A DNA stretch of 64,000 bases from Candidatus Borrarchaeum weybense (GTDB lineage: Archaea; Asgardarchaeota; Sifarchaeia; Borrarchaeales; Borrarchaeaceae): positions 32,001 through 96,000 of the forward strand of contig JAHQJS010000006.1 in the NCBI GenBank assembly GCA_019057385.1, in the 5' to 3' direction. The notes under the pieces were generated by a model. That model worked only from the letters and a program-made list of their open reading frames with translations, was not told the DNA's origin and made no database searches. Position numbers and translations under genes: made by a program. Positions within the stretch are counted from its first letter, which is position 1. Every line of letters starts with the position of its first letter. Below are positions 19,812-51,596 of the stretch, piece by piece.

Positions 19812-20244
19812 ACTACCACCAATCTGCTCATAAAGCCTGTCTCGAACAGAAATACAAATGTGATCTCATTATATTAAAGTAGGTTTCATTTAAAATTGAT
19901 GGTGTGTCCCAAACTTCGTCTGATGCTACGTAATAATTTTCTTTAAATTTTTATAATATCTTATAGAAATTATTCACTTTTAATGGGATATTGATAATCC
20001 TCATCCTATCAACTGTGCCTTCTTCTTTGAAATATTGAATCTAGGGTTTAACGATTTAGTTTATGACTTTATAAACACAAAACGCAAGAACTAAGATTAA
20101 AGTTCGGTAAACATAAACTTTTAAGAACTTTCTTAACAATGCTCTTTTGGTAATTTAATGATGTATATCTCTTAACAAGATTAAGAAGATAAATTTAGAT
20201 TTTAATAAACTTCAGATATATCAAGAGAATACGTGGTTTGATGT

Positions 20245-21096
20245 ATGGGGGAAGAACAGAAACCCATTAAATATGAACCGGAGCGATCAATTAAACAAGG
20301 GTATATCTCGCTCTGGAAAGAAATGTTCAAGGATACAAGAGAAAGCAAATGGCTAATTCGTCAGCTTTTTTTAAGAGATTTTAAAGCAATGTATAATCAA
20401 TCACTATTAGGAGTTTTATGGGCAATTATCATACCTCTTATAACACTTGGAACCTTTATTGTTTTGAGAAGTTCGGGATTATTTAGTGTTGGGGCGATAG
20501 AGGTACCTTATCCTATCTATGCACTCTTGGGTTTGATATTCTGGCAATTATTTGTCACTGGGATTTTACAGAGCACAAATTCGTTGACAAGCGCGGGCAC
20601 GATGATTAAAAAAATTAATTTTCCTCGTGAGGCCTTGATCTTCGCATCCTTTGGTAATACAATTGTCTCTTTTCTAATTCAGATAGTGATCGTTTCTATA
20701 TTATTTAGTATTTATGGATTTGTCCCTAATTGGAAGTTTGTACTGTTTCCGCTCATGGTAATTCCAATATTACTATTGACCTGCGGTTTAGGGTTCATAT
20801 TTTCAATAATAAATGGTATAATACGAGATTTAGGGCGAATCCTTAGCCTTGGATTAACCTTTTTATTGTTTGTTACTCCTATACTTTACGAAATCCCCGA
20901 AAGTGGCGTTGTAGCCACACTAGCCCGTGTCAACCCTTTATTTTATCTTTCGACAGCACCGAGGGATATCGCCCTTACTGGAACAATAAGTTATCCGTTT
21001 GGATTTTTCATCTCCTGTGCACTTTCAGTTTTCGTTTTTTTCTTTTGCTGGATGGCCTTTCATCTGACTGAAACTAGAATAGCGGAGAGGATTTAG
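20245..21096 (+). CDS. wzm: ABC-2 polysaccharide exporter permease (copy 1)
   Basis: RDFKAMYNQSLLGVLWAII, IKKINFPRE, RDLG, TPILY, NPL. Confidence 0.9.
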   Translation: MGEEQKPIKYEPERSIKQGYISLWKEMFKDTRESKWLIRQLFLRDFKAMYNQSLLGVLWAIIIPLITLGTFIVLRSSGLFSVGAIEVPYPIYALLGLIFWQLFVTGILQSTNSLTSAGTMIKKINFPREALIFASFGNTIVSFLIQIVIVSILFSIYGFVPNWKFVLFPLMVIPILLLTCGLGFIFSIINGIIRDLGRILSLGLTFLLFVTPILYEIPESGVVATLARVNPLFYLSTAPRDIALTGTISYPFGFFISCALSVFVFFFCWMAFHLTETRIAERI

Positions 21097-21101
21097 GAAC
21101 T

Positions 21102-22391
21102 ATGATATTGCGAGAAAAAAATGCGTTTACATCAGTTGGGGACGAGGTTGTTATTAGAGTGGAAAATGTATCAAAGAAGTTTTCTAAGTCTCTCAAGAGG
21201 TCTATGATCTATGGCATTAAGGATACCATTAAAAATATTTTTAAGTCGTCCGCGAAACCTGATATACTCAGAAAAGGTGAATTCTGGGCAGTAAATAATA
21301 TTTCATTTGAATTAAAAATGGGAGAATGTTTCGGCATTATAGGTCCAAATGGTTCAGGTAAAACAACGCTATTATCAATGTTGAACGGGATTTTTATGCC
21401 TGATACAGGCACGATAACAATAAAAGGAAAAACAGGCGCGTTAATAGCTGTTGGAGCGGGATTTCATCCCATGCTAACAGGTAGGGAAAATATTTACATT
21501 AAAGGTGCCATTATGGGAATGAGCAAAGCTGAACTTGACTCGAAATTTGATACCATAGTTGAATTTGCTGACATAGGCGATTTTCTTGATATGCCCGTAA
21601 AAAACTATAGTTCTGGGATGTTTGTAAGACTAGGTTTCTCTGTTGCAGTACATTGTGAACCGGAAATTCTTTTGATAGATGAAGTACTTTCTGTCGGTGA
21701 TTTGTCTTTTCAAAATAAATGTCTCCAGCGTCTTGATGAACTTAGGGAGAAAACGAATGCTGTGGTGCTTGTTAGTCATAATCTGGAACATGTAAGGACT
21801 TTATGCGATAGAGTATTGGTATTAAATAGTGGAAAGCCTGTGTTTTTAGGAACGTCAACTCAAGCCATCCAAAAATATGAGGAAATCACTCGCGATAAAC
21901 GATTGAAAAATTTGGAGAGGACTGGTGGACTTAGCAGGTATTTATTTTACTCATCTGGAGACATTGAATTTCTAGAAGGGGGGATAATGAATGAGTTAGG
22001 AAAACAAATTGACGCAATATCAATAGATGATGACGTAATCACATTCATAAGATTTCGAGTAAAAAACTCCATAGACACAGCCATAATAGCTATCTCTATA
22101 TTGAACACGCGGCATACACTATGTATTTGGCAGTTCAGTAATGACAAAGATCCGACTAAATTCTACAAATTTGATAGGGGAGAATATCTTGTAAAGGCGA
22201 AATTCAAGAAACCAAGGTTGGCCCCAGGAGTTTACACGATTTCCTATTCCATAAGGGATCAAAAAAGCGGAGAGATATATGAGAAGAATATAGGGTTTGT
22301 TGCTCCATTTAAAGTAACCGGCAAAGCGTTTGAGCGTAGCGTAATTTATGTAGAAAGCGAATGGGATGTAGAAAAGATTAAGATGAACTGA
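21102..22391 (+). CDS. wzt: ABC polysaccharide exporter ATPase with C-terminal Wzt_C-type domain (copy 1)
   Basis: Walker A GPNGSGKT, YSSGM signature, LLIDEVLSVGD, about 170 aa C-terminal extension. Confidence 0.92.
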   Translation: MILREKNAFTSVGDEVVIRVENVSKKFSKSLKRSMIYGIKDTIKNIFKSSAKPDILRKGEFWAVNNISFELKMGECFGIIGPNGSGKTTLLSMLNGIFMPDTGTITIKGKTGALIAVGAGFHPMLTGRENIYIKGAIMGMSKAELDSKFDTIVEFADIGDFLDMPVKNYSSGMFVRLGFSVAVHCEPEILLIDEVLSVGDLSFQNKCLQRLDELREKTNAVVLVSHNLEHVRTLCDRVLVLNSGKPVFLGTSTQAIQKYEEITRDKRLKNLERTGGLSRYLFYSSGDIEFLEGGIMNELGKQIDAISIDDDVITFIRFRVKNSIDTAIIAISILNTRHTLCIWQFSNDKDPTKFYKFDRGEYLVKAKFKKPRLAPGVYTISYSIRDQKSGEIYEKNIGFVAPFKVTGKAFERSVIYVESEWDVEKIKMN

Positions 22392-22453
22392 TGAAGAAGA
22401 AATAACTTTATTCGTTTTGAGAAGAAACAAGCTGTAATGAATGGAGTCTTAGT

Positions 22454-23362
22454 ATGAAAAAATTAACGTCTTACGATTTTTACATAGTCATAAGATCTGC
22501 AAATGAAAGGTCTTTACCTCTTTGTCTGAAATCGGTTAGGTCTCTAGGTGTGGATTTTGAGGTCATTAACATAAATCCTTTTTGGAAAGCAGTGATTAAA
22601 ACATTTAAAATTGGAATCAAAAGAGGGAGAAGATTTACAGTTGGATTAGATGCAGATATTGTCTTATATAAAAACGCAATTGACACTTTCATTAGAGTTA
22701 TCACCAAAACGCCAAGATATTGGAAATATGATTTTGGCCTAAAAGATCGATTTTATCCTAATAAAATATGGGGAGTGCATGTCTATGAGACGAGGGCTCT
22801 TCCAATTGCACTTGAGAATTTACCAAAGAATATCCAAATAATCTCAAAGCCAGAACGTCGATTTTGTTTCGAACTCAGGAAGAAAGAATACAACGACATT
22901 AACGTTCCTGATATAGTCGGAGAACATGGTTATAATCAATATTACAGAGATATTTTCAATCGTTTCTTTCATAGAGCGATCAGGAATCCACGTCATAAGA
23001 AAAAAATTTTCAAAATTACTGATAATAATGAAAACGACACTGGTTACAATCAAAATTATTACAGGAATCTCCCCAACCGCGTCTTTAATAGAGTCGTTAA
23101 AAAACCATATCTTGAGAAAATAATTTTCAAGAACCTTGATAATCTTAAAACTGACCCAGAACTAATGATGGCATACTTAGGTTGGCAAGAAGGAGAATCT
23201 TTTCTTTACAAATATAAATTGAAAATGATGATGAAGAGATTACTTCTCCTAGGTAGAAAATTAAGTAAGGACGTATTTCTCCCAATGGACTTTAAGAAAC
23301 AGAAAGACATCAAAAAATATCTTAAGAGATATGGATTAAAAGAACTAGAACCTTTGAATTGA
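22454..23362 (+). CDS. GT-A/GT2-like protein with an internal duplication
   Basis: VGLDADIVL DxD motif; repeated segment GYNQ-YYR...IFK...DN. Confidence 0.6.
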   Translation: MKKLTSYDFYIVIRSANERSLPLCLKSVRSLGVDFEVININPFWKAVIKTFKIGIKRGRRFTVGLDADIVLYKNAIDTFIRVITKTPRYWKYDFGLKDRFYPNKIWGVHVYETRALPIALENLPKNIQIISKPERRFCFELRKKEYNDINVPDIVGEHGYNQYYRDIFNRFFHRAIRNPRHKKKIFKITDNNENDTGYNQNYYRNLPNRVFNRVVKKPYLEKIIFKNLDNLKTDPELMMAYLGWQEGESFLYKYKLKMMMKRLLLLGRKLSKDVFLPMDFKKQKDIKKYLKRYGLKELEPLN

Positions 23363-23428
23363 GATAATTAATTTTTAATTAAATAAGAGTAGAAAAAGAA
23401 TGCGTGAACCAATTTGTGTTGAAAGACC

Positions 23429-24484
23429 ATGAAAATTCATATATACTATGGTTTCAGGGAAGGCGCATGGGGAGGAGCGAATCAATTTTTGAAATATTTG
23501 AAAAATTATTTAATTTCACAGGATTTGTATGAGGAAGATCCGTTAAAGGCTTCCGTGATATTATTTAATAGTTATCCGTTTAGGGAAGAGTGGAGGTTTA
23601 AAAGATTATTGAAGATTAAACGTGATAATAAGATCATAATTCATCGAGTAGATGGACCTATTTCGATAGTCAGAGGACATGGAAAGTGGAAATATATCGA
23701 TGAAATAATTTATAAATTTAATAAATTAGCTGCTGATGGTACTATTTTTCAAAGTAGATGGTCTATGATAAATAATAAACACATTGGAATGAAATCAAAT
23801 GATTACGAAACAATATTACTTAATGGAACTGACCCGTCTGTTTTTAGTTATACAAAGTCTTTGATTGGAGAAAAAGTTAAACTGGTATGTTCAAGTTGGT
23901 CTTCTAATTGGAATAAGGGATTTAAACTATACAAATATCTAGATGAAAATTTGGATTTTTCCAAGTTTGAAATGTGTTTTATTGGTAATTCACCTATAAA
24001 GTTCAAAAACATAAAATATGTTAAACCATTGCCTCCTAAAAGCATTGCAAAAAAACTAAGGAATTATAATATTTATATTACGGCTAGTGTAAACGATCCA
24101 TGTTCAAATTCACTAATAGAAGCGATATCTGTTGGATTGCCAATAATTGCAATAAATAGTGGAGGAAATCCAGAAATATTAGAAAGAACAAATTCAGGTT
24201 TACTATTTAATAGTGAAAATGATGCTATTGAGAAGATCGAAGATTTGGTAAAAAATTATTCGGAAATAGTCAAAAAAATTAAACCCCTTACTATTGATGA
24301 CGTTGGAAAAAAATATGTGGAATTTAGTGAAAATTTAGAACCACGGAAGAAAATATCTACTGGAGATGTTTTTAGGTTTATGAACTTTTTTTACTTCAAG
24401 AAAATAATAAGTGGAGAGACAAAATGGATACGGAAATGTTGTATGAACTTAAAGATAAAATTCTTATGTTTTTGCAGAAGATGA
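23429..24484 (+). CDS. GT4-like glycosyltransferase
   Basis: WGGANQF, HRVDGP, YITASVNDPCSNSLIEA, SGGNPE. Confidence 0.85.
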   Translation: MKIHIYYGFREGAWGGANQFLKYLKNYLISQDLYEEDPLKASVILFNSYPFREEWRFKRLLKIKRDNKIIIHRVDGPISIVRGHGKWKYIDEIIYKFNKLAADGTIFQSRWSMINNKHIGMKSNDYETILLNGTDPSVFSYTKSLIGEKVKLVCSSWSSNWNKGFKLYKYLDENLDFSKFEMCFIGNSPIKFKNIKYVKPLPPKSIAKKLRNYNIYITASVNDPCSNSLIEAISVGLPIIAINSGGNPEILERTNSGLLFNSENDAIEKIEDLVKNYSEIVKKIKPLTIDDVGKKYVEFSENLEPRKKISTGDVFRFMNFFYFKKIISGETKWIRKCCMNLKIKFLCFCRR

Positions 24485-25503
24485 AAGGCAAAAATGGATT
24501 CTATAGATATTCTCTCTCTGGAGATTTATATGATGAGAATATACACTGGGGGCTTGGAAATTCTATTTTTGCACTTAGATTATACTATATGATAAATTCT
24601 CTTGAAAATAAAGACTTAAATGATATATATAATGTTGTTATTTCATACCAAAGACCAAATGGATACATATATGACGATTATCTACACAGAAAAACACTTT
24701 CTATGGGAAAGATACTTTCTTCAATAAAAAATCTTCGATTAAGAAATTTATTCCGAGAAAAAGAAAAAAGAGCTGAAACAAGACAGTCCTTCTCCTCGCT
24801 CTTTATGATACGCAAAAAACCTCCCATTCCCTTTTATGATTTTCCAAAATCAGAAGCATCGATAGAAAAATATCTTTCTACCTTAAATTGGAATAAGCCT
24901 TGGGATGCAGGCAGTCATTTTAGTATTTTAATTTTCTTTTTGTTTAATATGAAGAGGTTCTATCCTAGATATTTTGACTATGATGCAAATGAACTAATTA
25001 ATTATGCCCTTGGATGGATAAATGAAATTCAAAATGATGATGGAAGCTGGTATATTGGTAATACAACCTCGAATCAAAAAATAAATGGTGCTATGAAAAT
25101 ACTAACGGGATTGAATGTAACGAGTGAGCCGATTAATAACCCCGAGAAACTTATAGATTTATCTCTTAGGACGATAAATGATAGTCAGGCCTGCGATAAC
25201 TTCAATATTGTCTATGTTCTTTACAACTGTTCAAAACAAATTAACTTCGCGTATAGGCAGGACGAAATTGAAAGATTTTTTGAGGATAGGCTAAGATTAT
25301 ACCAGAAATATTATTTTAAAGATATCGGGGGATTTTCTTTTCATCCAAATAAATCAAATGAATCTTATTATGGTGCGAAAATAACAAAAGGATTATGCGA
25401 ACCCGATATCCACGGAACAATGTTATTTACATGGGGCATAAGCTTAATCTCAGAAGTTCTGGGTATTAATAAAGAGATAGGTTTAAAACCCTTTATCCCA
25501 TAG
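24424..25503 (+). CDS. Uncharacterised protein, probable alpha-barrel with prenyltransferase-like repeats
   Basis: Long ORF with SD GGAG; repeats YQRPNGY, IQNDDGSW, IGGFSF; overlaps the upstream GT by 61 bp. Confidence 0.6.
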   Translation: MDTEMLYELKDKILMFLQKMKGKNGFYRYSLSGDLYDENIHWGLGNSIFALRLYYMINSLENKDLNDIYNVVISYQRPNGYIYDDYLHRKTLSMGKILSSIKNLRLRNLFREKEKRAETRQSFSSLFMIRKKPPIPFYDFPKSEASIEKYLSTLNWNKPWDAGSHFSILIFFLFNMKRFYPRYFDYDANELINYALGWINEIQNDDGSWYIGNTTSNQKINGAMKILTGLNVTSEPINNPEKLIDLSLRTINDSQACDNFNIVYVLYNCSKQINFAYRQDEIERFFEDRLRLYQKYYFKDIGGFSFHPNKSNESYYGAKITKGLCEPDIHGTMLFTWGISLISEVLGINKEIGLKPFIP

Positions 25504-25693
25504 GCATTTCTCAATATAATTGGCTAGAATATCTGAAACTAGGACAATCAAAACACTATTAATTAAGCTTTGGGGAGAAATGGGATTGAATATATGATGC
25601 AATAGGATCGAAAAGTGAAAAAACCATCGCAAACATAAAGATTACGTCAAAAAAAAACGACCGAAAAAATGACTAAAATGTCAATGCATTGAA

Positions 25694-26779
25694 GTGAAAA
25701 GAACTATGAAAAAGATCTACAACTACTTTTTTTCTCGATTTAAAAGGCCTCATACTATATTGTACTACATTATAGAATCAGCGGACTGGGTGATCAGATG
25801 GATCGGCAACGAAATATCAGAAAAAATGAACAGTCAAAAACTTTTAAAGACCATAGCAACCAATACCCACGCTTGTATTCATAATCAGATAATCCATTTT
25901 GGCAGTAGAAATTTCTTGCTAAGGAATTCTTGGAGAACTGTTGACTCAAGCAACAAGATTGTGTTAAGTTGGTATCATGGTTCAGAGAAAGACAAGACGC
26001 CGTCAAATCTGGCGATGATAAAAACTTTACCTGAAGCTTGTGAAAAGGTTGATGTGATCCATACAGCATGCAAAATATCGAGAGAGAAATTGATAAATTG
26101 GGGCGTTCCAGAAGAAAAGATTGTACTTATCCCTTTTGGAGTTAATCTGGAAATTTTCAAACATGTGTCAGTAGCACAGAAAAACAAAATCAGAAAAACT
26201 CTTGGCTTACCACAAGACAAGATTGTTATAGGATCTTTCCAGAAAGATGGATTAGGATGGGGAGAGGGGCTGGAGCCGAAATTAGTGAAGGGCCCTGATA
26301 TCTTTGTAGAAGTTGTTGATAGGTTATATAGAGACTATGATATAATAGCTTTTATTCTTGGCCCTGCAAGAGGTTACGTAAAAAGAGAGTTAGAGAAAAG
26401 AGGAGTCCCATATCTACATGATTCTACTAGTGGTTGGAGTATGACATCAAAATTCTATCATGCTTTAGATTTGTACTTGGTGACATCTAGAGAAGAAGGT
26501 GGTCCACTGGCAATATTAGAAGCAATGGCTACTGGAGTACCATTAGTGAGTACAAAGGTTGGCATGTCACCAGACGTTATAATAGATGGATATAATGGCC
26601 TCCTGAGTGAATTAGAGGATGTGCATATGTTGGTAAGAAAAGCGACAAGTATAATAGAAGATAAAGAGTTAGCCTATCAATTAGTAGCGAATGGACTGAA
26701 AACTGTCAAGAATTATTCATGGGAGAAGATATGTAGGCGTCATTACGAAGAAATCTATTCAAGGTTTATCACAACGTAA
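25694..26779 (+). CDS. GT4-like glycosyltransferase
   Basis: IGSFQKD, KGPD, TSREEGGPLAILEAM. Confidence 0.88.
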   Translation: MKRTMKKIYNYFFSRFKRPHTILYYIIESADWVIRWIGNEISEKMNSQKLLKTIATNTHACIHNQIIHFGSRNFLLRNSWRTVDSSNKIVLSWYHGSEKDKTPSNLAMIKTLPEACEKVDVIHTACKISREKLINWGVPEEKIVLIPFGVNLEIFKHVSVAQKNKIRKTLGLPQDKIVIGSFQKDGLGWGEGLEPKLVKGPDIFVEVVDRLYRDYDIIAFILGPARGYVKRELEKRGVPYLHDSTSGWSMTSKFYHALDLYLVTSREEGGPLAILEAMATGVPLVSTKVGMSPDVIIDGYNGLLSELEDVHMLVRKATSIIEDKELAYQLVANGLKTVKNYSWEKICRRHYEEIYSRFITT

Positions 26780-26898
26780 TATTGGAAAAAGACACAATGA
26801 AGTCTTATGTCTAATGAATATACAAAAATGACAAAAGAAGTTAGAAAGTGCATAACAAGTAATACAAATAGTAGTGATTAAGATAGAGGAGAAAATGT

Positions 26899-27561: not shown

Positions 27562-27660
27562 AAAATAAAAAAGTTTCCTGAAAGCTTTCATAAAGAATTT
27601 GGAGATGAGTAAATTCAGGTTATCATTATACCGACTCGTAAAACCTGTAGGCGACCCAAT

Positions 27661-28680: not shown

Positions 28681-28755
28681 GAGACTCTATTTTCTAGCTA
28701 TTGAGACTTTTTAGAAACTCGCCTAATAGCATAGGATATATTGGTGAGATTTATT

Positions 28756-30171: not shown

Positions 30172-30183
30172 GGGATCTAAAAC

Positions 30184-31191: not shown

Positions 31192-31229
31192 AGATACCTA
31201 GAATTCATGGGGGTTGTTCGGATGTGTAG

Positions 31230-39987: not shown

Positions 39988-39997
39988 ATGCTCATCT

Positions 39998-42737: not shown

Positions 42738-43045
42738 GAAGCAAGAACCTCTTTAATGGCTTCAATCTCCATATATAATACATTATCCAAAGAATATTTT
42801 GTTAAAATATAATTTCTAGCATTTCTGCCAAGCTTATTCTGAAGCGACTCATCGAACATAAGTGTCTCTATCGTTTCTGCAATACTCTTGAAGTCAGTTT
42901 TGCAGAAATAACCTGTTACTAAATGTTCAATATCTTTTCTTATACCTGCAACATTCGTTCCAATACAGGATAAGCCACAACTCATGGCTTCAAGCAATAC
43001 TTTTTTAGTGAAAAATAATGTCAGTATTGTGTCAATAAGTTTCAT
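42734..43045 (-). pseudogene. GT4 with in-frame internal deletion (module copy 2)
   Basis: MKLIDTILTLFFTKK is joined directly to VLLEAMSCG; about 270 codons present in paralogs 28756 and 53569 are missing. Confidence 0.85.
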
Positions 43046-43197
43046 AACTAATTACCAACATATTTTTTAAAATTCTCTCTCAGTCTTCAATATCTCGAAA
43101 CTCATAACTCTATAAAATATGCTACACATTACTCAAACGATTAGAAAAATCAAAAGAACGCTCTTCCTAGTATAATCAATAGCATTCTCGATATTAT

Positions 43198-45234
43198 TCA
43201 TGAATCTACATTCTTTAAGGTCTTCCACACGGTATATATTGACAAATACTTATCTGCGATTTCATCCAGTTTAGGGATGGAGATCAGTTTTTGAAATAAC
43301 TTATAATTCCTAGCTAAGCGAAACAACTGTGTCAGAATCTCTTCTTTATTGTTGAATCCAAGTCCTCCGTAGCCCACTAGTTCGGGATGTCCTCCTTCAT
43401 TTAGGTATAAGGCCGGTAGGCCACATGCTAAAGCTTCGATGAGCGCATTGGAACAAGGATCATTCTTACTGGCAGTTATATATATGTCATGATTGCGCAA
43501 TATATCTCCTAGCGCTTCTGAAGGCTGAGGAGAAATATTGTGAATATTATCAAATTCAAATGGAGTGTTTCCAACGAAAGTATATTCGAATCTGTCCCAA
43601 TCTAAATGATCTTCAATCCATTTATATGTTTCGAATCCTTTGCGTAGATTATCTGACCAACTTGTAGAAATTAGGCGAATCTTTCTACGTGAAGAATATG
43701 GGATCTTTCCATTACTATGAAAAATTCTGGCATCCACCGCATTTGGAATGATGATAGGTCTTCTTGGAGTATATCCCATTTCAACAGTCTTTTGATAACT
43801 CCAATAGGATTGGAACACGGTAAAATCTGCTACCGTATTATTAATCTTAAATACTTTATCATCAAGCCCTTTATCCTTGCCCCTTACCACGACAGTAGGA
43901 CCATCTACCCTGTGCACCATGCAGATATTACTATAATCCTTTCTTTGTCGATTAAATTTGTCCATGTCAAATGTGAATGAGTTGAGTACACAAATTTTAG
44001 AAGTGCTTCCTAGTCTTGTAGAAACTTTCCATCGTTTATTCTCCATTGCTTTTTTCAAAGCCATAAGGAATTGGTTTCCACCTCCCCAAGGCGGCTTATG
44101 AAAGGCATGTAAAATTGTTATGACTCCTCGTTTCGTTAATCTATCACGTAAACGACTGAAAAAGGATGCATTTAATCTTATTCTATTCTCTAGTTTATCT
44201 AAAGTCTTTGATCGTACTTTTCGACTTGTCAATTCACGATAAATTCGTGTCCAATATCTTCCTACGGCTTCTAGAGTGTGTTCTTCTTTAATTCTTTGAT
44301 AATTGAGTTCAATAAATTCCGATAAATTGTTTGTTTCAATATCGTTGATTATTAAGGTAATTCCTTCTACCGGGTCTGGGTATATTGTTTTTAAGGCCAG
44401 AATATCGGTAGCTTGCCCGACGTTTGTGCTAATTATTTTGCATTTAGCAGTAGCACATTCTATTATAGCTTTTGGACCACCTTCTAGGCGACCGGTTACT
44501 AAATATAAATCGACTATGTTATAAAGAAAATTGATGGTTTCTTGAGGAAGCGTATTGATATAAAGGTCATCTTCTTCGACTTCTAGCCTCTTTCCGACAT
44601 AGACAAAAGGTATTGAATATCGTGAAAGTTGTTTAAATAACCAAAATCTTCTAGGTCCCGCTAATACTACACAAATATTTTTCTTTTGTTGATAGAGTCT
44701 TTTTATCACTTCGAAAAAAACATCAGGCCCTTTAATATATTTAGGTGTCTTAAGGTCGCCCCCCTCAGTATCCCTTTGAAAACTGCCAATAAGATATTTA
44801 TCCCTTGGTATATTGTATTTTTTGCAAAATTCATCTAATATAGGATCTCTCTTATCTATTTTGTAAAATATCTTCAAGTTAACAGGGTAAGGTACGTAAT
44901 CTCCATCAAAATGACAATCATCAAGCATTTTTTTGGCCCTTTTGGACATCACAATCCATTTATCCACGAACGGCAATACTCTGAGATAATTGGGATGCAT
45001 CAGCATATTCTTGACATCGTGTGGGATATGTGCTATAACATATTTCTCTGCAAGATATCCGGAATCAATCATTTGGAGGGCAGTCCAGTTCACCGAATGG
45101 ATGATGTTACAATTTTTAAGATCGGTGAATTCGCAAAAGGGTGATAAGCACCTTCTTAAGAGATTAAGATCATCCGCAGTTGCCCATTTAACTGGATCCC
45201 CTCCCATCAAGAATACTTTATACATCTTTTGCAC
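43198..45234 (-). CDS. Tandem two-domain GT4-like glycosyltransferase
   Basis: N-half IGSFQRD/KGPD/EGGPKAIIE resembles 25694; C-half WGGGNQF/HRVDGP/NDPCSNALIEA resembles 23429. Confidence 0.88.
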   Translation of the reverse strand: MQKMYKVFLMGGDPVKWATADDLNLLRRCLSPFCEFTDLKNCNIIHSVNWTALQMIDSGYLAEKYVIAHIPHDVKNMLMHPNYLRVLPFVDKWIVMSKRAKKMLDDCHFDGDYVPYPVNLKIFYKIDKRDPILDEFCKKYNIPRDKYLIGSFQRDTEGGDLKTPKYIKGPDVFFEVIKRLYQQKKNICVVLAGPRRFWLFKQLSRYSIPFVYVGKRLEVEEDDLYINTLPQETINFLYNIVDLYLVTGRLEGGPKAIIECATAKCKIISTNVGQATDILALKTIYPDPVEGITLIINDIETNNLSEFIELNYQRIKEEHTLEAVGRYWTRIYRELTSRKVRSKTLDKLENRIRLNASFFSRLRDRLTKRGVITILHAFHKPPWGGGNQFLMALKKAMENKRWKVSTRLGSTSKICVLNSFTFDMDKFNRQRKDYSNICMVHRVDGPTVVVRGKDKGLDDKVFKINNTVADFTVFQSYWSYQKTVEMGYTPRRPIIIPNAVDARIFHSNGKIPYSSRRKIRLISTSWSDNLRKGFETYKWIEDHLDWDRFEYTFVGNTPFEFDNIHNISPQPSEALGDILRNHDIYITASKNDPCSNALIEALACGLPALYLNEGGHPELVGYGGLGFNNKEEILTQLFRLARNYKLFQKLISIPKLDEIADKYLSIYTVWKTLKNVDS

Positions 45235-45248
45235 GCTACATCATATAC

Positions 45249-46013
45249 TTAAAGCGGTTTAGTGGCAATTATGCCATATCCTGTTGTGTAACTGTTAAAA
45301 AACTGATTTTTTTTAAAAAATGGTCTCCTATCAAACTTCAGAGCAATTCTTTTTCCAAATACTGCTAATTTGTAAATCGTCAACCTCATAAGCCTCTTAA
45401 TTCTTGACTTCATTCTCTCTTTTATAATTTCATAGGCAAAACCAGTTAGCATTTCAGAGGCAACGCTAAAAAAAAGTCCCTGTCTTTCAGTTTTAATATT
45501 CTGAAATCCAATAGCATTAAGGATCGTTTGCCAGTAATACTCTGTATATCGTCCATAATCTTGCGGATCAGGATGTATCCTGTGAAGGAAAGGTACACTA
45601 ACCAGCAATAGACCTCCGGGTTTTAAGACGCGAAAGGCCTCTTTTATTACCTTTATTGGATCCAATACATGCTCTAAAAGCTCAGAGCATACAACTCCAT
45701 CGAAAGAACTGTCTGGAACAGGGATATCCGCAACATCACAAAAGAAATCAGGTTCCGTGGAAGCATCGATATTAGCGTATTTTACGGATAGAGGATAACT
45801 TTCGATATTGAAATATCCCCTTTTGTTTTTCTTTTTGCCACCCATATCTAATATGTTTGCTCCTTGCTTAAACAAACAAATATTTCGAATGTAGAATTCA
45901 TCTATATAATATCGTCTAAGAGTTAAAAATGTGTATATCTTCTCATTTTTCCTTTTTATCAGACACTTGCCCTCCGGTAGGTCCATAGAGATCATAGTTA
46001 TTGAGTGAAGCAC
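45249..46013 (-). CDS. Class I SAM-dependent methyltransferase
   Basis: ILDMGG, CSELLEHV, RVLKPGG, HPDPQDYGRYT. Confidence 0.9.
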   Translation of the reverse strand: MLHSITMISMDLPEGKCLIKRKNEKIYTFLTLRRYYIDEFYIRNICLFKQGANILDMGGKKKNKRGYFNIESYPLSVKYANIDASTEPDFFCDVADIPVPDSSFDGVVCSELLEHVLDPIKVIKEAFRVLKPGGLLLVSVPFLHRIHPDPQDYGRYTEYYWQTILNAIGFQNIKTERQGLFFSVASEMLTGFAYEIIKERMKSRIKRLMRLTIYKLAVFGKRIALKFDRRPFFKKNQFFNSYTTGYGIIATKPL

Positions 46014-46212
46014 ATTTTTTAAATTTCAAGAAAGCCATTGAAATGATAATAAGGGGTTTTAAATACTCATATCATACTTTCCCATTCAGCACAAATAAAA
46101 AGCTTTTCTTCATGTAGATCAGATTAAAGCATCATCTTAATGTGTTATAGGTAAACTTATTTACTCTCTTAAAACTGATAAGATCTAAACGTTGTTAAAA
46201 ATGAAATAAGGA

Positions 46213-47124
46213 ATGAAAATGCCCATAAATACTAAGAAAATGGAAATAGATAACACTATTTATAAACTTGAAGTTCGAGAAAACGCTTTTCAGGATGATG
46301 AGGCAACTCGAATATTGATTCCTGCATTTTTAAAAAATAAAACCGCAGCAGAATTGACTCGAATCTGTATTGACAGTATTATTAAATATACTGAGGAACC
46401 TTATGAACTCTGGTATATTGATAACAATTCGCCCCAGAAATTTACAGAATGGTTGGATCAATATCCTCAAATTAACATAATTTTTAACAAGACCGAACCA
46501 GTTAATCCATTTCGATATAGAAAAGGATATATGAAGAAAAGAGACCAAACAAAAGATGCTTCTTATGCTAATGCGATTGGATTAGAACTCGGTTGTAACG
46601 TTATCAAAGATACTGCAAAATTCGTTTTTGTAATGCATAGTGATATTTTAATTACAAAAAACGGTTGGTTAAAATTTCTAAAATCAAAATTAAATGAAAA
46701 AATAAAAGCAATTGGCATAAGAAAAGACAGGATAAGAGTTCATGCGCTCCACGTTGGAGGACTTTTTTTTGATTTCTCACTATTTAAAAAGTTAGAGATG
46801 AGTTTTCTACCTAACATAAAATGTGAAAGATATCCCAACCGTCCAGAATATGATGTAGGTGATGATATTACAATTAAATTAAAAGAAAATAACTTTGGAG
46901 TTTTTACTTGCAAAAATACCTTTAATGACATTCAATTAAATGAACTTATTCCTCCAAATAATCCGATAAAAGAATTAAAATGTGATAAGGCATTTGATGA
47001 TACAAATGAAATATTTTACCTCCATTTAGGAAGAGGTGCGCCAAAATCATTCGGGAAATACAAAAGAAAAAATAAGTTGACTGCTGAACAATGGATAGAT
47101 TTTGCAAAAAACTATATCTTATAA
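46213..47124 (+). CDS. GT2-like glycosyltransferase
   Basis: CIDSI, YIDNNS, MHSDIL, YDVG, HLGRG. Confidence 0.7.
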   Translation: MKMPINTKKMEIDNTIYKLEVRENAFQDDEATRILIPAFLKNKTAAELTRICIDSIIKYTEEPYELWYIDNNSPQKFTEWLDQYPQINIIFNKTEPVNPFRYRKGYMKKRDQTKDASYANAIGLELGCNVIKDTAKFVFVMHSDILITKNGWLKFLKSKLNEKIKAIGIRKDRIRVHALHVGGLFFDFSLFKKLEMSFLPNIKCERYPNRPEYDVGDDITIKLKENNFGVFTCKNTFNDIQLNELIPPNNPIKELKCDKAFDDTNEIFYLHLGRGAPKSFGKYKRKNKLTAEQWIDFAKNYIL

Positions 47125-47197
47125 ACAAAACGATCCTTAGTTATTGAAGTTTTTACGAGTAATATATTCTACTACTGTAACTGTAGAAGTGGCGAAA

Positions 47198-47918
47198 ATG
47201 AAACAATAACTAGTGAAGTTCATAAACTCATTTTTAAATCCAATATTTAAGCGATTTATATTATTTAAGAGAACGAAAAAGAGAACTAAATTCAGATTCA
47301 TGCATGACAAGGTTCTTAATACCACAATCAAGTATGATGACGCTCATAGGAAACATCTTCATCTACAATTACATCGATCTCTATCTGAGGAGAATATTAA
47401 GACATCTAAACGGTATATGTATTTAATAAATCGCTTAAGAGAAATTATTACCCCCTCAAACATGAGATTTTTGTGTGTTAGATGCAGGTCTGTTGGAGAA
47501 ACCAATTATTTTAAATCTATTGGAGCAAAAAGAGTTATCAGGATCGATCTTTTTTCTGAGAGTGAAGATATAATGATAATGGATGCATGATATGACTTTC
47601 GAAGATAATAATGTTGATGTCATATTCCGTTGTCATTCTCTTGAACATGCGCGCGATTACAAAAAAACTGTTAAAGAATTTACAAGAGTTGCAAAGAATG
47701 ATTCGATCTTTTTAATTGAAGTTCCAGTGAACTATGAAACTAAAGGCGCTGATTTGTGGGATTTCAAATCATTACAAGATCTCAAGAAGGTATTCCAACC
47801 ATACATTGGAAAAATATTGTTTGAAGAATCTCTAGGAAAGGATGCAAAAAACAATTTTGGTACGACGGATATAATAAGGTTAATTTTTAGGATTAAGAAG
47901 AGGATTAATGGATTTTAA
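47198..47918 (+). pseudogene. Frameshifted methyltransferase
   Basis: ATG AAA CAA TAA early stop; split at 47583-47590 (ATGGATGCATGAT, consistent with a 2-bp loss from MDMHD); motif glycines appear replaced (LCVRCR, VIRIDL); HSLEH in the second piece. Confidence 0.8.
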
Positions 47919-48025: not shown

Positions 48026-48652
48026 TTATTTTTTCCCGATTATTAAAATGCTATCACACCAATCAATGCGATAAATTTGATTTATATATCTTGCCAGTAT
48101 TCTCTCAATAATTCCTTTAGGATGTCTTTTGCTATAACGTGATATTTCAATTACTTCAAGGCCTGCATATTTATATAACATATACAAAGCTTTGTATTCC
48201 CAATAAGTGATATGAGTGATATTTGTTCTTTGACGTACGGGATGATGGATATTAGGAACAGTTGAAATTAAATAACCATTTTTTTCAAGATGTTTTGAAA
48301 GTATACAAAATAGATCTATACTATCTTGCAGACTAATATGCTCAAAAACTTGATTCGCAACAATTAAAGAAAACCGTTCATCATTAGGAATTTCTTCGAC
48401 CGAAGAATAAGTAAAGTCACCACACGGGTCATTATCTAATGAAAAATATAAATCGTCTTTTAACTTTAAAAATTTCTGTAAAGGTTTTTCTTTTCCTGCA
48501 CCAACATCTAGGACTTTTCCACTATGATAAAGATTTACAATTCTTTTTTGATGATTTTTTAATATTGGTAAATCTTTAATAGAGCCAAACCTCAAAAAGC
48601 ACTCTCTCAGACAATCAGAGAAAAATCCGTATTCGAATTTTTTTGTATTCAT
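48026..48652 (-). CDS. Class I SAM-dependent methyltransferase
   Basis: VLDVGAG, NQVFEHI, STVPN; SD AGGAGG. Confidence 0.88.
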   Translation of the reverse strand: MNTKKFEYGFFSDCLRECFLRFGSIKDLPILKNHQKRIVNLYHSGKVLDVGAGKEKPLQKFLKLKDDLYFSLDNDPCGDFTYSSVEEIPNDERFSLIVANQVFEHISLQDSIDLFCILSKHLEKNGYLISTVPNIHHPVRQRTNITHITYWEYKALYMLYKYAGLEVIEISRYSKRHPKGIIERILARYINQIYRIDWCDSILIIGKK

Positions 48653-48698
48653 GCCTAGCCTCCTTTCATAAACTCAAGAATTATTTATATGATTTCTC

Positions 48699-48943
48699 AA
48701 TACAACCCCTCAACTTGTTGGAGGGGAGGGATGAAGTGCGTTACGTTGTTCACTTTCACGATACTCTGTAACCCTTAAATACTGTTTCGCATAGCTCATA
48801 TGTAGAATTGAGCTGAGGTAACACTCACCAGGCTCACATTCACATCACGTTCAGGGCAGGAATTGTCCGTTGAGCATGTGTGACATGTCCCGTTGGGAAT
48901 GAATGATTCAGGAAGCTAGCCTACTTGTAGGGTGGTAGTTAAC
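48699..48943 (+). mobile_element. Non-autonomous IS200/IS605 derivative retaining left end, promoter, omegaRNA-like scaffold and right end (tnpB deleted)
   Basis: Left-end hairpin CCCCTCAACTTGTTGGAGGGG...GATGAAG; TTAAATA box 48775; GAGGT SD; AGGGCAGGAATTGTCC (GQELSVEHV, TnpB-tail-like); right end CAGGAAGCTAGCCTACTTGTAGGGTGGTAGTTAAC. Confidence 0.7.
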
Positions 48944-49119: not shown

Positions 49120-50430
49120 TTAATCAATGAATTCCATTTTCCATTCACTTTTGGTATGTACTAGTCCTCTTGGAATGGCATCTCCTTCAATGATAAACGG
49201 TTTTAAATCAGATATTCTTTCATAAATCTCATTGGTAATCCCATTTCTTATGCTGAAAATCATAGAATATACTCCAGGAACTAAACTGGGTGTTAAGAAC
49301 TTCACAATTAACCTGTATTTACCTTTCAAAATATTACTAAATCTGATTTTATCGTACTCATTACTTATATGCCATATACAGTTGTTAACATTCATTGATT
49401 CAGCCCTAATTGCAACTGAAAAGTAAAGTTCCTCGAAATGCTTAGTTGTTTCAAACTCAAAGAATGTTATAAGTGGTTTTTCAACTTTAATTTTTTCAGT
49501 TAAGTTCCCAAATTCATCCAAAATTCCCGCGTCACCAAAAATGAAGTCTCCAGATGATATACGTACACCAGGAAGGACCATCTGTTTTTTGTTTTTGATA
49601 TCTGTAAGGCTTCTCTCCCTTGCCATTTCATGATATTTTGATAAAGCTTCGTGAGTCTTTCCCAGGAAAACTTGTTTGCCATTGTTGAGTATCAACACTC
49701 TGTCGCACAATTGTCTTATATGCCCTAAATTATGGCTGACGAAAACTATTGCGTAGGCATTTTCTAAAACTTGACTTACTCGACGCAAACTTTTATTTTG
49801 AAAAGCCAAATCACCAACAGATAAAACTTCATCGATTAATAATACTTCAGGTTCGCAATGCACAGCAACAGAGAAGCCTAATCTTACAAACATCCCAGAA
49901 CTATAGTTTTTCACTGGTGAATCAAGAAAATCACCGATATCTGCAAACTTAACGATATCATCAAATTTCTCCTCAATTTCTTCCTTACTCATGCCCAGTA
50001 TAGCACCGTTTATATAGATGTTTTCTCTTCCTGTTAGCATGGGATGAAACCCTGCCCCAACGGCTATCAGTGCACCAGTTTTGCCTTTTATAGTGATTTT
50101 TCCTTTATCCGGCATATAAATCCCGTTCATTATTGATAAAAGCGATGTTTTACCAGCACCGTTAGGACCGATAATTCCGAGACATTCACCTTTTTTCACC
50201 TCAAAAGATACATCATTTAGAGCCCAGAATTCATCTTTTCTAAGTATGTCAGGCTTTGCGGACATCCGCAAAATATTTCTGATAGTGTCTTTTATGCCAT
50301 AGGCCATGGACCGCCTGAGTGACCTAGAAAACTTCTTTGAAACATTTTCAGCTTTGATGACAACCTCATCATTTTCTGAGAAAATTTCATCATCATCTTT
50401 TAAGACTAAAATTCTATATCCGCTCCGCAA
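49120..50430 (-). CDS. wzt: ABC polysaccharide exporter ATPase with C-terminal Wzt_C-type domain (copy 2)
   Basis: GPNGAGKT, YSSGM, LLIDEVLSVGD; paralog of 21102-22391. Start uncertain. Confidence 0.92.
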   Translation of the reverse strand: MRSGYRILVLKDDDEIFSENDEVVIKAENVSKKFSRSLRRSMAYGIKDTIRNILRMSAKPDILRKDEFWALNDVSFEVKKGECLGIIGPNGAGKTSLLSIMNGIYMPDKGKITIKGKTGALIAVGAGFHPMLTGRENIYINGAILGMSKEEIEEKFDDIVKFADIGDFLDSPVKNYSSGMFVRLGFSVAVHCEPEVLLIDEVLSVGDLAFQNKSLRRVSQVLENAYAIVFVSHNLGHIRQLCDRVLILNNGKQVFLGKTHEALSKYHEMARERSLTDIKNKKQMVLPGVRISSGDFIFGDAGILDEFGNLTEKIKVEKPLITFFEFETTKHFEELYFSVAIRAESMNVNNCIWHISNEYDKIRFSNILKGKYRLIVKFLTPSLVPGVYSMIFSIRNGITNEIYERISDLKPFIIEGDAIPRGLVHTKSEWKMEFID

Positions 50431-51265
50431 TTCTTGTTTCTGCTAGATGAAAGGACATCCAACAGAAGAAAAAGACGAATACCGAAAGGCCACAGGAGAT
50501 AAAATAGCTTAAGGGATGACTTAAAGTTCCAGTCAGGGCAATCTCCCTCGGTCCTATAGAAAGATAATACAAGGGGTTGATGCGAGCCAATGTAACTACA
50601 AAGCCACTTTCGGGAAGTTCATAAGCTATGGGAGTAATGAACAATAAAAAGGTTAAGCCAAGGGTAAGTATGCGTCCCAAATCTCTTATGATGCCATTTA
50701 TAATTGAGCAGATGAAGCCTAGGCCACAGCTCAATAATAATATGGGAACAGCCATCAGTGGAAACATCACAAATTGCCAGTGAGGAATGAAATTATAAAC
50801 TCCAAACAAAATAAACACTGCTCCCAGTTGAAACAAAAACGAGATGATGGTATTCCCAAATGTAGCAAAGACTAAGGCTTCCCGTGGAAAATTAATCTTT
50901 TTAAGCATCCCACCAGCACTTACAAGCGAATTGGTACTCTGAACTAGCCCGGTGACAAATAATTGCCAGAAGGACAACCCAAGGAGTGCGTAGATCACAT
51001 AAGGTACCTCTATAGCTCCCACACTAAAAAATCCGGAGCTTCTCAACACTATAAAGGTAGCAAGCGTTACCAGCGGTATGATAAGCGCCCAGGCGACACC
51101 TAAGATTGATTGTCCATATTGTCCTTTAAAGTCCCTGACAAACAGTTGCTGGATTAACCAGTTGCTTTCTTTCGTATTGTGGAATATTTCTTTCCAGAGA
51201 ATTCTATAACCTCTTTTTATTGATTGTTCTGGCTCATATACTGTTATATTTTCTTCTTTGACCAT
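50414..51265 (-). CDS. wzm: ABC-2 polysaccharide exporter permease (copy 2)
   Basis: Full-length paralog of 20245-21096 (both end ETRIAERI). ATG 51265 aligns with the paralog start. Confidence 0.9.
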   Translation of the reverse strand: MVKEENITVYEPEQSIKRGYRILWKEIFHNTKESNWLIQQLFVRDFKGQYGQSILGVAWALIIPLVTLATFIVLRSSGFFSVGAIEVPYVIYALLGLSFWQLFVTGLVQSTNSLVSAGGMLKKINFPREALVFATFGNTIISFLFQLGAVFILFGVYNFIPHWQFVMFPLMAVPILLLSCGLGFICSIINGIIRDLGRILTLGLTFLLFITPIAYELPESGFVVTLARINPLYYLSIGPREIALTGTLSHPLSYFISCGLSVFVFFFCWMSFHLAETRIAERI

Positions 51266-51596
51266 AACAACTAACCACATGTACTCTATTATAAAACTGA
51301 AGGCATTTAAATTCTGTTTGTATCTGTTTTTGCCCTTCTTAAAATTTTTTGTTAACAGATCTAGTAATTATTTTATAATTATAACTGCAAATTATTTACT
51401 CTTCATAAATCTGTGGAGCTGAATATATTTTATAAATTAAAATGGCGATTTAGATAACTCTTTAGAATTCCTCAACAAGTTTGGATGGCATTCTATCATG
51501 GAAGAGGACTTTCGGTAGTTAAAACTTTTATTTGATGAGAATGCTGAATACTAGGGTATATAACAGTTAACATATTTATAGGCATATATCGTTTTA

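Follow-up and report, generated by a model that had tools for sequence, protein, structure and literature searches.

The window analysed here, 64 000 nucleotides from an archaeon of the Asgard genus Candidatus Borrarchaeum (the host genome scores 1223 bits against the archaeal SSU model), is filled by a low-GC island of glycan genes that extends beyond it (GC about 0.32 in the window, 0.37 in the genome). It contains two convergent wzm–wzt operons, one on the left (L, 20245–31191, plus strand) and one on the right (R, 51280–40980, minus strand), separated by a central segment (Table 1). Blastp among the ORFs of the window and a repeat search place paralogous modules in mirror order in the two arms, such that homologous genes are collinear in inverted orientation. 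Pfam confirmed the assignments as ABC2_membrane, ABC_tran with Wzt_C, GT4, GT2 and methyltransferase (MTase). An earlier reading of the DNA (the sequence-only reading) had described facing wzm–wzt operons with paralogous modules around a core of radical SAM, Gfo and lipid-carrier GT genes; blastp, blastn and Pfam bear out the operons, and the core does contain radical SAM and Gfo genes together with GT2 genes of the membrane type.

Table 1. Features of the two arms, the central segment and the right flank (window positions; identities are between proteins unless stated; C4, locus on contig C4).
Position	Strand	Feature	Evidence or remark
20185–20244	+	Conserved ∼60-nt 5′ region of wzm L, putative archaeal promoter/leader	TTTAAT-like box, CTTCAG, GTGGTT, then ATG
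20245–21096	+	wzm L, ABC-2 permease, 283 aa	PF01061; 73.6% to C4 copy
21102–22391	+	wzt L, ABC ATPase with Wzt_C carbohydrate-binding domain	PF00005, PF14524
22454–23362	+	302-aa protein, GT-A-like (lead from Atlas features)	No Pfam match
23429–24484	+	GT4, like C-terminal half of fused GT	Pfam GT1 family
24424–25503	+	359-aa protein, LanC-like/alpha-alpha toroid (Atlas lead)	70% paralogue in C4
25694–26779	+	GT4, like N-terminal half of fused GT	Pfam
26899–27561	+	SAM MTase, candidate glycan modifier/terminator	PF08241
28741–29886	+	GT4 of GT4–MTase–GT2 cassette, intact	71% to right remnant
29884–30183	+	Decayed MTase remnant (left pseudo-MTase)	tblastn, blastn against right MTase
30184–31191	+	GT2 L	PF00535
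30259–30508	+	250-nt tract in GT2 L	99.2% DNA identity (2 mismatches) to reverse complement of 41636–41885
31230–32219	−	MTase-like gene	Pfam
33067–34978	+	Radical SAM/SPASM enzyme (33067–33984), Gfo/Idh/MocA oxidoreductase (33998–34978)	
35156–36421	−	Membrane GT2, 4 TM segments, candidate dolichyl-phosphate-sugar synthase	
36572–38314	−	580-aa protein, ∼12 TM segments, narrow family	Two paralogues in fourth cassette
38737–39723	−	GT2 with C-terminal TM helices	76% paralogue in fourth cassette
39998–40741	−	Methyltransf_24 gene	Pfam
40980–41960	−	GT2 R, bears partner tract 41636–41885	Pfam, blastp
41973–42737	−	Cassette MTase, intact	Pfam; 69% to fourth-cassette copy
42734–43057	−	GT4 remnant, in-frame internal deletion	blastp, repeat search
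43102	.	Strain breakpoint	MAG contig, Logan contig
43198–45234	−	Two-domain (fused) GT4, 678 aa	71% to C4 copy
45249–46013	−	MTase	Pfam
46213–47918	+	Opposite-strand insert: GT2-like ORF (46213–47124), frameshifted MTase (47213–47918)	
48026–48652	−	MTase, downstream of wzt R	Pfam
49120–50430	−	wzt R, ABC ATPase with Wzt_C	Pfam, blastp
50414–51280	−	wzm R	Pfam, blastp
51953–55859	−	Co-oriented genes upstream of wzm R: sulfotransferase (51953–53155), GT4 (53569–54699), GT4 (54717–55859)	

The two arms compared

The Wzm proteins of the arms are 74.6% identical over 283 aa, the Wzt proteins 56.6% over 429 aa and the GT2 enzymes 63%. Blastn self-comparison and the repeat search reveal inverted similarity at the DNA level, ∼ 75% in wzm and the 5′ part of wzt, in GT2 and in the GT4 tail. 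The first two GT4 genes downstream of wzt L match the single fused enzyme of the right arm, the proximal one at 36.7% (residues 372–664) and the distal one at 32.2% (residues 114–338), so the split-versus-fused arrangement that had been proposed holds.

Decay has been reciprocal: the MTase was lost from the left arm and the GT4 from the right. Both pseudogenes of the sequence-only reading are real. The left one carries stops and deletions relative to the right MTase (tblastn), of which ∼ 38 codons at the N-terminus, one internal motif and the 9 final codons remain; blastn matches 29995–30085 to 42420–42511 (E = 6.6e-10). The right GT4 is an in-frame remnant (103 aa, 42734–43045) in which ∼ 22 codons survive from the start and ∼ 90 from the end. 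In a related organism (L014) a decayed GT4 copy of ∼ 1.1 kb persists; this organism also conserves both genes of the opposite-strand insert and lacks a counterpart of window positions 51314–54607.

The exporters and their upstream region

A PF01061 permease adjoins a PF00005 ATPase in both arms and in a third wzm–wzt locus of the same genome, on contig C4, and PF14524 scores above cut-off in all three Wzt copies. Relatives in the PDB are TarG and Wzm for Wzm L, and Wzt/TagH on the ATPase side; Wzt L matches Aquifex aeolicus Wzt (8dku/7k2t) over its full length, through residue 426 (E = 1.6e-62). For wzm R, the second ATG (51265) is the probable true start. The ATPase part (NBD) of Wzt is 72% identical between L and R and 63–64% between either and C4, whereas the carbohydrate-binding domains of L and R are only 32% identical. 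With dN/dS of about 0.1 for wzm, the copies are under purifying selection; synonymous sites are saturated (dS above 1; 1.2–2.6) and the copies are old.

Similarity upstream of the two wzm genes had also been noted. In an anchored alignment it is real but short, being significant at −60 to −1 (L–R z = 5.9, 0 of 1000 shuffles), and the same stretch precedes wzm in the C4 locus (L–C4 z = 4.2). No significant similarity to the right or C4 loci was found beyond −60. We regard this 60-nt region as a putative promoter/leader.

The central segment

The radical SAM/SPASM and Gfo/Idh/MocA enzymes are probable sugar-tailoring enzymes. For the first membrane GT2 of the table, the best NCBIfam model is AglJ, below cut-off. 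The 580-aa protein gave negative results with Pfam, NCBIfam and hhalign to PMT_2, its AF2 model is poor, and its family has 6 detectable representatives among 1.84 billion; an embedding-based lead and its topology make it a candidate GT-C type glycosyltransferase, as a lead only.

Further copies and gene trees

The arms are not a pair of twins, as had been supposed: besides the C4 locus, a fourth GT4–MTase–GT2 cassette lies just outside the window, about 33 kb away. Nor are L and R each other's closest relatives for all common genes. The fused GT of R is 71% identical to that of C4, against 32–37% to its left counterparts; the sulfotransferase is common to R and C4 only (62%); and the 24424–25503 gene is common to L and C4 only, with its C4 paralogue adjoining the C4 fused GT. 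The left cassette GT4 is 65% identical to the third copy of this gene, 53569–54699, and 66% to the fourth-cassette copy, which is in turn the nearest relative of the third; the GT2 copies are about equidistant. Divergence along the arms is uneven, 32–75% amino acid identity with one DNA tract at 99%. The modules of the arms thus have partly different histories.

The three Wzm copies belong to a single lineage-specific clade (SH-aLRT 93), which supports the proposal that L and R are ancient paralogues within an ABC-transporter-dependent glycan pathway. Ca. Borrarchaeum yapensis and a Promethearchaeota MAG carry the nearest Wzm loci. For each copy the clade contains closer orthologues from other metagenomic organisms: L pairs with P0002 (88%), R with P0006/P0010 and C4 with B. 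yapensis, with which its locus is syntenic. GT2 follows the same pattern, one clade with nearer partners elsewhere. In the whole-protein Wzt tree L, R and C4 lie in separate supported groups; in the NBD tree L and R are sisters with weak support (76). Approximately unbiased (AU) tests of an L+R clade gave p = 0.60 for Wzm, the constrained tree being slightly better, and p = 0.34 for GT2, so that sister paralogy of the arms is neither shown nor rejected by the gene trees. L-type and R-type contexts are conserved in other organisms. On one related scaffold, two wzt genes stand in tandem and are not mirrored. Among 251 genomes sampled from the phylum, exporters bearing Wzt_C were found in 7, and a set of three loci in no other. 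Genome G004, listed under the same genus, carries the C4 type only, with a Wzm identical to that of B. yapensis.

Recombination

The region still recombines. The 250-nt tract in GT2 L and its partner in GT2 R are near-identical inside genes that are otherwise 60–75% identical, which marks recent gene conversion between them; they could also act as a site of inversion. A second conversion tract, 40220–40501, is near-identical to C6:115664–115945 and links two methyltransferase paralogues. Two contigs, one from a MAG and one from Logan, are 99.8–99.97% identical to the window on the right of 43102; past this point the near-identical strain continues with a 78%-identical MTase 3′ end and GT2 and then unrelated genes. 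The strain switch is found in two independent assemblies.

Since the tract pair brackets an 11.1-kb core (30509–41635) as inverted repeats, we considered whether the core is an invertible segment that switches the surface glycan. A flip would keep both GT2 reading frames open while exchanging their C-terminal two-thirds, and the module for extracytoplasmic decoration (MTase24, membrane GT2s, 12-TM protein) would pass from the right to the left export operon. In run X3 one 437-nt contig (3.5×) runs from the right 5′ flank into the left 3′ flank; it may be a de Bruijn chimera formed at low coverage, or reflect a conversion tract of greater length. The Pfam-scanned ORFs at 17–56 kb include no recombinase family, the gaps there hold no large unassigned ORF, and no invertible promoter was found. 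We consider such a switch rather improbable.

Origin of the two arms

We favour, with a probability of about 0.6, a reading in which the arms are two of at least three paralogous Wzm–Wzt glycan assembly and export loci that stand tail to tail as a mosaic of duplication, loss, decay and recombination. Each arm is assembled from shared cassettes, namely wzm–wzt, a two-domain or split GT4 and GT4–MTase–GT2, and such cassettes recur in the C4 locus and in the fourth cassette. A mosaic, rather than a clean two-arm duplication, is indicated because the copies are old, have orthologues elsewhere and combine modules of partly different history. Of the old inverted duplication proposed earlier, paralogy, age and mirror order stand; the single event is the less probable part, given the modules nearest to C4 and the relative with tandem wzt genes. 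Indeed, in a larger family of at least three clusters still swapping pieces, a single mirror-image duplication cannot be shown.

One old inverted duplication in situ, followed by point mutation, reciprocal pseudogenization, gene loss and replacement, is nevertheless possible, although on balance unlikely. The mirror order of the common modules and the upstream stretch in both arms speak for it; an L–R duplication of the exporter, with other genes lost or replaced afterwards, is compatible with trees that do not reject L+R (AU test) and with NBDs that are closest, if weakly sister, between L and R. Against this stand the fused GT, sulfotransferase and 24424–25503 gene with their C4 affinities, cassette GT4 and GT2 copies outside the arms that are equally close or closer, the upstream motif in C4, the tandem, non-inverted wzt pair of a relative and an identity that ranges from 32% to 99% along the arms.

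That the arms were acquired horizontally from different donors, the duplication being only apparent, seems to us improbable. The sparse distribution of Wzt_C exporters in the phylum, the low GC of the window, the C4-only G004 and the placement of L and R beside different metagenomic sequences in the whole-Wzt tree could be taken as signs of it. But low GC is usual in glycan loci, the separation in the Wzt tree stems from the fast-evolving C-terminal domain, and the Wzm, Wzt NBD and GT2 copies form single lineage-specific clades with Borrarchaeum or Promethearchaeota sequences. The one Wzm clade supports genuine paralogy of the arms over separate acquisition from distant taxa.

Least credible of all, and very improbable, is an assembly artefact in which the contig joins two strains or mis-joins repeats and the mirror arrangement is absent from one chromosome. 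The identical 250-nt tracts do exceed short-read k-mers, Logan contigs break there, a near-identical strain in the same study continues differently, and the orientation of the core cannot be checked from contigs alone. However, arms with ∼ 75% DNA identity are too diverged for strain alleles, an independent Logan contig matches the right arm to 41835 at 100%, and the R-arm order recurs in another organism. Depths in run X1, which as the possible source sample is not fully independent support, are 32 for the left arm, 31 for the core and 26 for the 3′ part of the right GT2, with 57, about double, for the collapsed tract.

A model for assembly and export

Homology with bacterial O-antigen and S-layer-glycan pathways suggests how paralogous loci of this kind may work. 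A priming enzyme (AglH/WecA-like) would start the chain, with dolichyl phosphate as carrier; the genome encodes this enzyme and AglB at other sites, AglB on another contig. Cytoplasmic GT4 and GT2 enzymes would extend the chain, and GT4, GT2 and fused GT4 are present in the arms, the last as a candidate chain-extending enzyme. Methyl or sulfate groups may then cap or decorate it; several methyltransferases and sulfotransferases are present and may include a chain terminator. The Wzt C-terminal domain would recognize the finished chain for Wzm–Wzt to carry across the membrane, and the membrane GT2 and polytopic-protein module may add sugars outside. With only 32% identity between their Wzt binding domains, L and R probably export lipid-linked glycans that differ from each other and in their caps, which fits the two surface glycans proposed earlier.

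Comparison with known systems

The arms resemble the ABC-dependent O-antigen pathway (E. coli O9a/O8 WbdA–WbdD–Wzm–Wzt; Aquifex aeolicus 6M96, 7K2T, 8DKU) in their adjacent permease and ATPase, the C-terminal Wzt_C on the ATPase, a two-domain GT4 beside methyltransferases, a priming enzyme encoded elsewhere and the absence of Wzx or Wzy families among the ORFs scanned at 17–56 kb. They differ in having no recognized WbdD-like kinase/coiled-coil terminator, in their sulfotransferases and in three exporter paralogues in one genome. In an archaeal host the expected carrier is dolichyl phosphate, with neither a lipid A-core acceptor nor an outer membrane.

Geobacillus stearothermophilus, a single-membrane cell, exports its S-layer glycoprotein glycan through the Wzm/Wzt of the slg cluster. 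Export of a lipid-linked glycan is ABC-dependent there too, with a surface protein as the final site of the chain; a WsaB-like O-oligosaccharyltransferase was not identified here. The membrane GT2s of the central segment (AglJ-like; C-terminal-TM GT2) beside a polytopic 12-TM protein recall three-component extracytoplasmic glycosylation (GtrA/GtrB/GtrC, ArnC/ArnT) as outlined in PMC11127046. Set against that outline, the polytopic protein has no GT-C match in Pfam or NCBIfam, and no GtrA-like flippase was identified.

Asgard archaea are the closest known prokaryotic relatives of eukaryotes. To our knowledge, almost nothing is known of their cell surface, and we know of no lipid carrier, acceptor or glycan structure described for any of them. 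The three Wzt binding domains and the narrow 12-TM family are targets for work on Asgard surface glycans.

Bacteria have mosaic O-antigen and capsule loci, and Bacteroides has phase-variable capsule loci. The present loci differ in their Asgard host, and neither an invertible promoter nor a site-specific recombinase was found. With these bacterial loci they share several paralogous copies in one genome, strain-level cassette exchange, conversion tracts and pseudogene remnants at the cassette borders. The Borrarchaeum lineage has expanded bacterial-style ABC-transporter-dependent glycan export to three paralogous loci. Like the O-antigen and capsule loci of bacteria, these evolve through exchange of cassettes, gene conversion, decay into pseudogenes and replacement at the level of strains. 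Such evolution suggests that the surface of the archaeon is under pressure to diversify, with viruses or partners as possible agents. The mechanism in general is familiar, and what is unusual is the host of an otherwise ordinary kind of system.

Layout and pairing of the two arms

Two convergent gene strings, each beginning with wzm and wzt, lie within 20245-51280 of the window (see table). The genome comprises 4.18 Mb in 8 contigs with a GC content of ~ 0.37, compared with ~ 0.32 for the window, and the entire 64-kb window is a glycan island. The right wzm probably starts at its second ATG (51265). A search against Rfam gave no RNA families in the window.

Genes of the left (+) and right (-) wzm-wzt arms, the third locus and the fourth cassette. 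Coordinates are those of the window unless a contig is named; identities are to the window's copies.
Feature	Coordinates	Strand
Left wzm / wzt	20245-21096 / 21102-22391	+
302-aa protein of unknown family	after wzt, before GT4 23429-24484	+
GT4	23429-24484	+
359-aa protein of unknown family	24424-25503	+
GT4	25694-26779	+
Methyltransferase	26899-27561	+
339-aa protein of unknown family	between methyltransferase 26899-27561 and GT4 28741-29886	+
GT4	28741-29886	+
Methyltransferase remnant, decayed	29884-30183	+
Left GT2	30184-31191	+
Methyltransferase-like gene	between the strings	-
Radical SAM/SPASM gene; Gfo/Idh/MocA gene	between the strings	
MTase24, GT2 with TM helices, 580-aa 12-TM protein, AglJ-like membrane GT2	past right GT2, to 35156	-
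580-aa 12-TM protein, three genome copies	36572-38314; L016:3171-4958; L016:5020-6765	
Right GT2	41960-40980	-
Methyltransferase	42737-41973	-
GT4 remnant, 103 aa	43045-42734	-
Two-domain (fused) GT4, 678 aa	45234-43198	-
Methyltransferase	46013-45249	-
Insert on opposite strand	46213-47918	+
Methyltransferase	48652-48026	-
Right wzm / wzt	51280/51265-50414 / 50430-49120	-
Third locus, start: sulfotransferase (62% to right arm's), wzm (74-75%), wzt (49-57%), unique genes	C4, 235.6-258.8 kb	all on one strand
Third locus, end: 24424 paralogue (70%), fused GT, 370-aa gene, GT2 (63-64%)	C4, 235.6-258.8 kb	all on one strand
Fourth cassette: GT2, MTase, intact GT4 (60-69%), 580-aa membrane protein x2 (64-75%), TM-bearing GT2 (76%), MTase24 (89%)	C6:107.1-116.2 kb	

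The left (L) and right (R) arms pair by blastp of their ORFs in Wzm (74.6% identity), Wzt (56.6%) and GT2 (63%); GT4 28741 matches the right GT4 remnant (71%), GT4 23429 the C-terminal half of the fused GT (36.7%) and GT4 25694 its N-terminal half (32.2%). Inverted DNA matches of ~ 75% identity cover wzm with the first ~ 620 nt of wzt, GT2 and the GT4 tail. The paired modules in two facing arms, described in the sequence-only reading, are thus confirmed, and both pseudogenes (left methyltransferase, right GT4) are real. Its claim of likeness upstream of the two wzm genes holds over the 60 nt that precede the start (alignment z 5.9); local and anchored alignments gave nothing significant beyond -60, and the third locus has the same stretch (z 4.2). 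A promoter is predicted ~ 35-45 nt ahead of each wzm.

Misassembly is an unlikely source of the mirror arms. They differ by 25% in DNA, the right-arm order recurs on another contig (L014, below), and depth in sequencing run X1 is 32 for the left arm, 31 for the 11-kb core between the GT2 genes and 26 for the 3' part of the right GT2, with about double (57) at the collapsed tract. As X1 may be the source sample, this support is not independent. The X1 contigs leave 41973-46500 uncovered, yet a Logan contig of that study covers the region, and the hole proves nothing.

Upstream of the left arm, positions 1-17017 encode a deacetylase, GT4s, a B12 radical SAM protein, a UPF0104/LPG_synthase_TM membrane protein and at least two PMT_2-type GT-C proteins with a 553-aa ORF without assignment between them. 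The central segment has an 850-nt gap with a 75-aa ORF (32179-32406, -) similar to the C-terminal region of a SAM methyltransferase; this ORF may be another gene remnant. The 580-aa 12-TM protein has no match in Pfam or NCBIfam and belongs to a very narrow family (6 representatives at E<=1e-3 among 1.84 billion proteins, 4 of them close). An AlphaFold2 model from a 7-sequence alignment was too poor for a fold search (mean pLDDT 47.6), and hhalign comparison with the window's PMT_2 protein gave a probability of 0.6%.

A third locus, a fourth cassette and recurring units

Searching the whole genome with the window proteins (tblastn, plus ORF maps) revealed a third wzm-wzt locus on contig C4 and a fourth cassette just beyond the window, so that the proposed two-copy 'twin' system does not stand. 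A further member of the cassette GT4 family lies at 53569-54699. The recurring units are wzm-wzt, the two-domain GT4, cassette A (GT4-MTase-GT2) and cassette B (MTase24-GT2-membrane protein). The right arm carries A then B, the fourth site B then A and the left arm A only. Cassette A is intact at the fourth site only, having lost its MTase in the left arm and its GT4 in the right. Wzt_C is present in 7 of 251 sampled genomes of the phylum, and only this genome has three copies.

Phylogeny and divergence

All three Wzm copies share one 22-row clade (SH-aLRT 93) of a 72-row tree, but each has nearer partners: L groups with the metagenomic protein P0002 (88%), R with P0006/P0010 and C4 with ten sequences including Candidatus Borrarchaeum yapensis. 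The nearest Wzm loci among named genomes are those of B. yapensis and a Promethearchaeota MAG; the Wzm of G004, a genome listed as the same genus, is identical to that of B. yapensis, whose contig is syntenic with the C4 locus. A clade of the L and R lineages is not rejected (AU p 0.60), the constrained tree being slightly better. The whole-Wzt tree places the copies in separate supported groups, L with P0242 (77%), R with P0252 (94%) and C4 with B. yapensis (82%), whereas in a tree of the Wzt ATPase part (NBD) L joins (R, P0252) with a support of 76 only. Identity of the NBD is 72% between L and R and 63-64% to C4, that of the C-terminal binding domain 32% and 18-21%. For GT2, the L, R, C4, fourth and variant-strain copies fall in one 26-row clade, each with nearer partners, and the fourth-copy group is nearer to R than L is; without the conversion tract (below), an L+R clade is 6.5 lnL worse and not rejected (p 0.34). 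The Wzm and GT2 trees therefore neither show nor reject left-right sisterhood.

Values of dS are 1.2-1.6 for wzm (dN/dS ~ 0.1), 2.1-2.6 for wzt and 1.4-3.7 for GT2, save for 0.64 between L and R, a value lowered by the conversion tract. Judged from their sequences, the copies are old, functional paralogues within one lineage-specific family, in which the L and R exporters may be sister genes. The glycosyltransferase repertoire departs from this pattern: the fused GT is 71% identical between R and C4 versus 32-37% between R and L, the 24424 gene is found in L and C4 only and the sulfotransferase in R and C4 only. The single inverted duplication proposed earlier is accordingly compatible with the Wzm and GT2 topology tests and at odds with these three genes.

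Relatives and a strain variant

The order of the right arm, with its opposite-strand insert, is preserved on L014, a Logan contig of a separate study whose Wzt is 94% identical. DNA identity of L014 to the window over successive segments is 98.4%, 92.3%, 94.6% and 92.8%, a mosaic. Its decayed GT4 (~ 1.1 kb) is longer than the remnant in our genome, which therefore reflects a later internal deletion. The same divergent GT4 lies upstream on the JGI contig that encodes P0002, the left-type Wzm. An ENA scaffold has two co-oriented wzt genes separated by 13 kb, of which one is the left-type orthologue. Neighbouring exporter loci thus recur in relatives; the mirror layout does not.

Between 61280 and 43102 the window is matched at 99.8-99.97% identity by two contigs, one from the NCBI MAG GCA_019058535.1 and the other a Logan contig of a separate run. 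Past 43102 both pass into a 78%-identical MTase 3' end plus GT2 and then into unrelated genes; a Logan contig of another run reproduces the window's version. In place of the window core the variant (L010:11150-20935; JAHPYX010000120.1) encodes a PMT-like GT-C, a GT4, three B12-binding radical SAM proteins, a methyltransferase, a polysaccharide deacetylase and a hexapeptide acyltransferase, without blastn match in our genome. Because the variant switches at 43102, the border of cassette A is a strain-level recombination breakpoint.

L014 lacks 48689-48943 and 51314-54607. The former is a 255-nt mini-element between the right wzt and the adjoining methyltransferase, for which L014 (otherwise 92-98% identical) presents the empty site; ~ 35 related copies (77-90% identity) occur across the genome contigs. 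The latter, a 3.3-kb segment, includes a GC-rich element without ORF (51551-51927) upstream of the right wzm. A 41-nt end piece of this element recurs inverted at 39920-39960 (90%; site 39920-39987), and the genome has weak copies at other sites.

The rRNA operon reaches 1223 bits against the archaeal SSU model and 874 against the bacterial one; taken with the Wzm relatives and the C4 synteny above, this makes the host an Asgard archaeon in the genus Borrarchaeum. The 16S gene (G000:C5:332562-335234; L004:1506-4171) spans 2666 nt against 1478 model positions and therefore contains ~ 1.2 kb of insert(s). A tRNA match 1.3 kb upstream measures 133 nt against a 71-nt model, which suggests an intron.

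Conversion tracts and possible inversion

Positions 30259-30508 (left GT2) are the reverse complement of 41636-41885 (right GT2) with 2 bases different, against 30-35% of positions in the flanks. A 40-nt core of the conversion tract had no matches in JGI metagenome contigs. A second near-identical tract, direct and 282 nt long (40220-40501 and C6:115664-115945), lies within two MTase24 paralogues otherwise ~ 89% identical in protein, and its sequence points to recent gene conversion across 43 kb.

A single 437-nt contig of run X3 (3.5x depth) joins the 5' flank of the right GT2 to the 3' flank of the left GT2, the junction falling within the first 38 identical bases. This is the expected inversion product; a de Bruijn chimera or a longer conversion tract fits equally well at 3.5x. 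No recombinase was found near the 11-kb core, and we consider it improbable that the core switches by inversion.

Discussion

Full-text literature searches turned up no account of Wzm/Wzt systems from Asgard archaea. One survey of Asgard transporters reports a single LPS-type system, from one MAG (PMC7997004), and exporters of this kind are absent from a review of archaeal N-glycosylation (PMC11407970). The interest of the present loci lies in their host, their threefold expansion and their recombination tracts. Overall, what had been observed in the sequence stands, and its interpretation is supported in part.

The left Wzt aligns over its full length, binding domain included, with Aquifex aeolicus Wzt, and Wzm matches TarG/Wzm structures; the fused GT had no match among PDB sequences. 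The genome encodes AglH/WecA-like priming enzymes and AglB at other sites. By analogy with the E. coli O9a and S-layer glycan pathways, synthesis would be primed on dolichyl phosphate and the chain extended in the cytoplasm by GT4/GT2 enzymes, with the fused GT4 as candidate polymerizing enzyme. A methyl or sulfate cap would then be added, the Wzt C-domain would recognize the chain and Wzm-Wzt would export it; the membrane GT2 and 12-TM module possibly decorate it outside. Since the Wzt C-domains have diverged, we argue that the arms would handle different glycans. The system is nonetheless of a known kind, that of ABC-dependent glycan loci evolving as mosaics.
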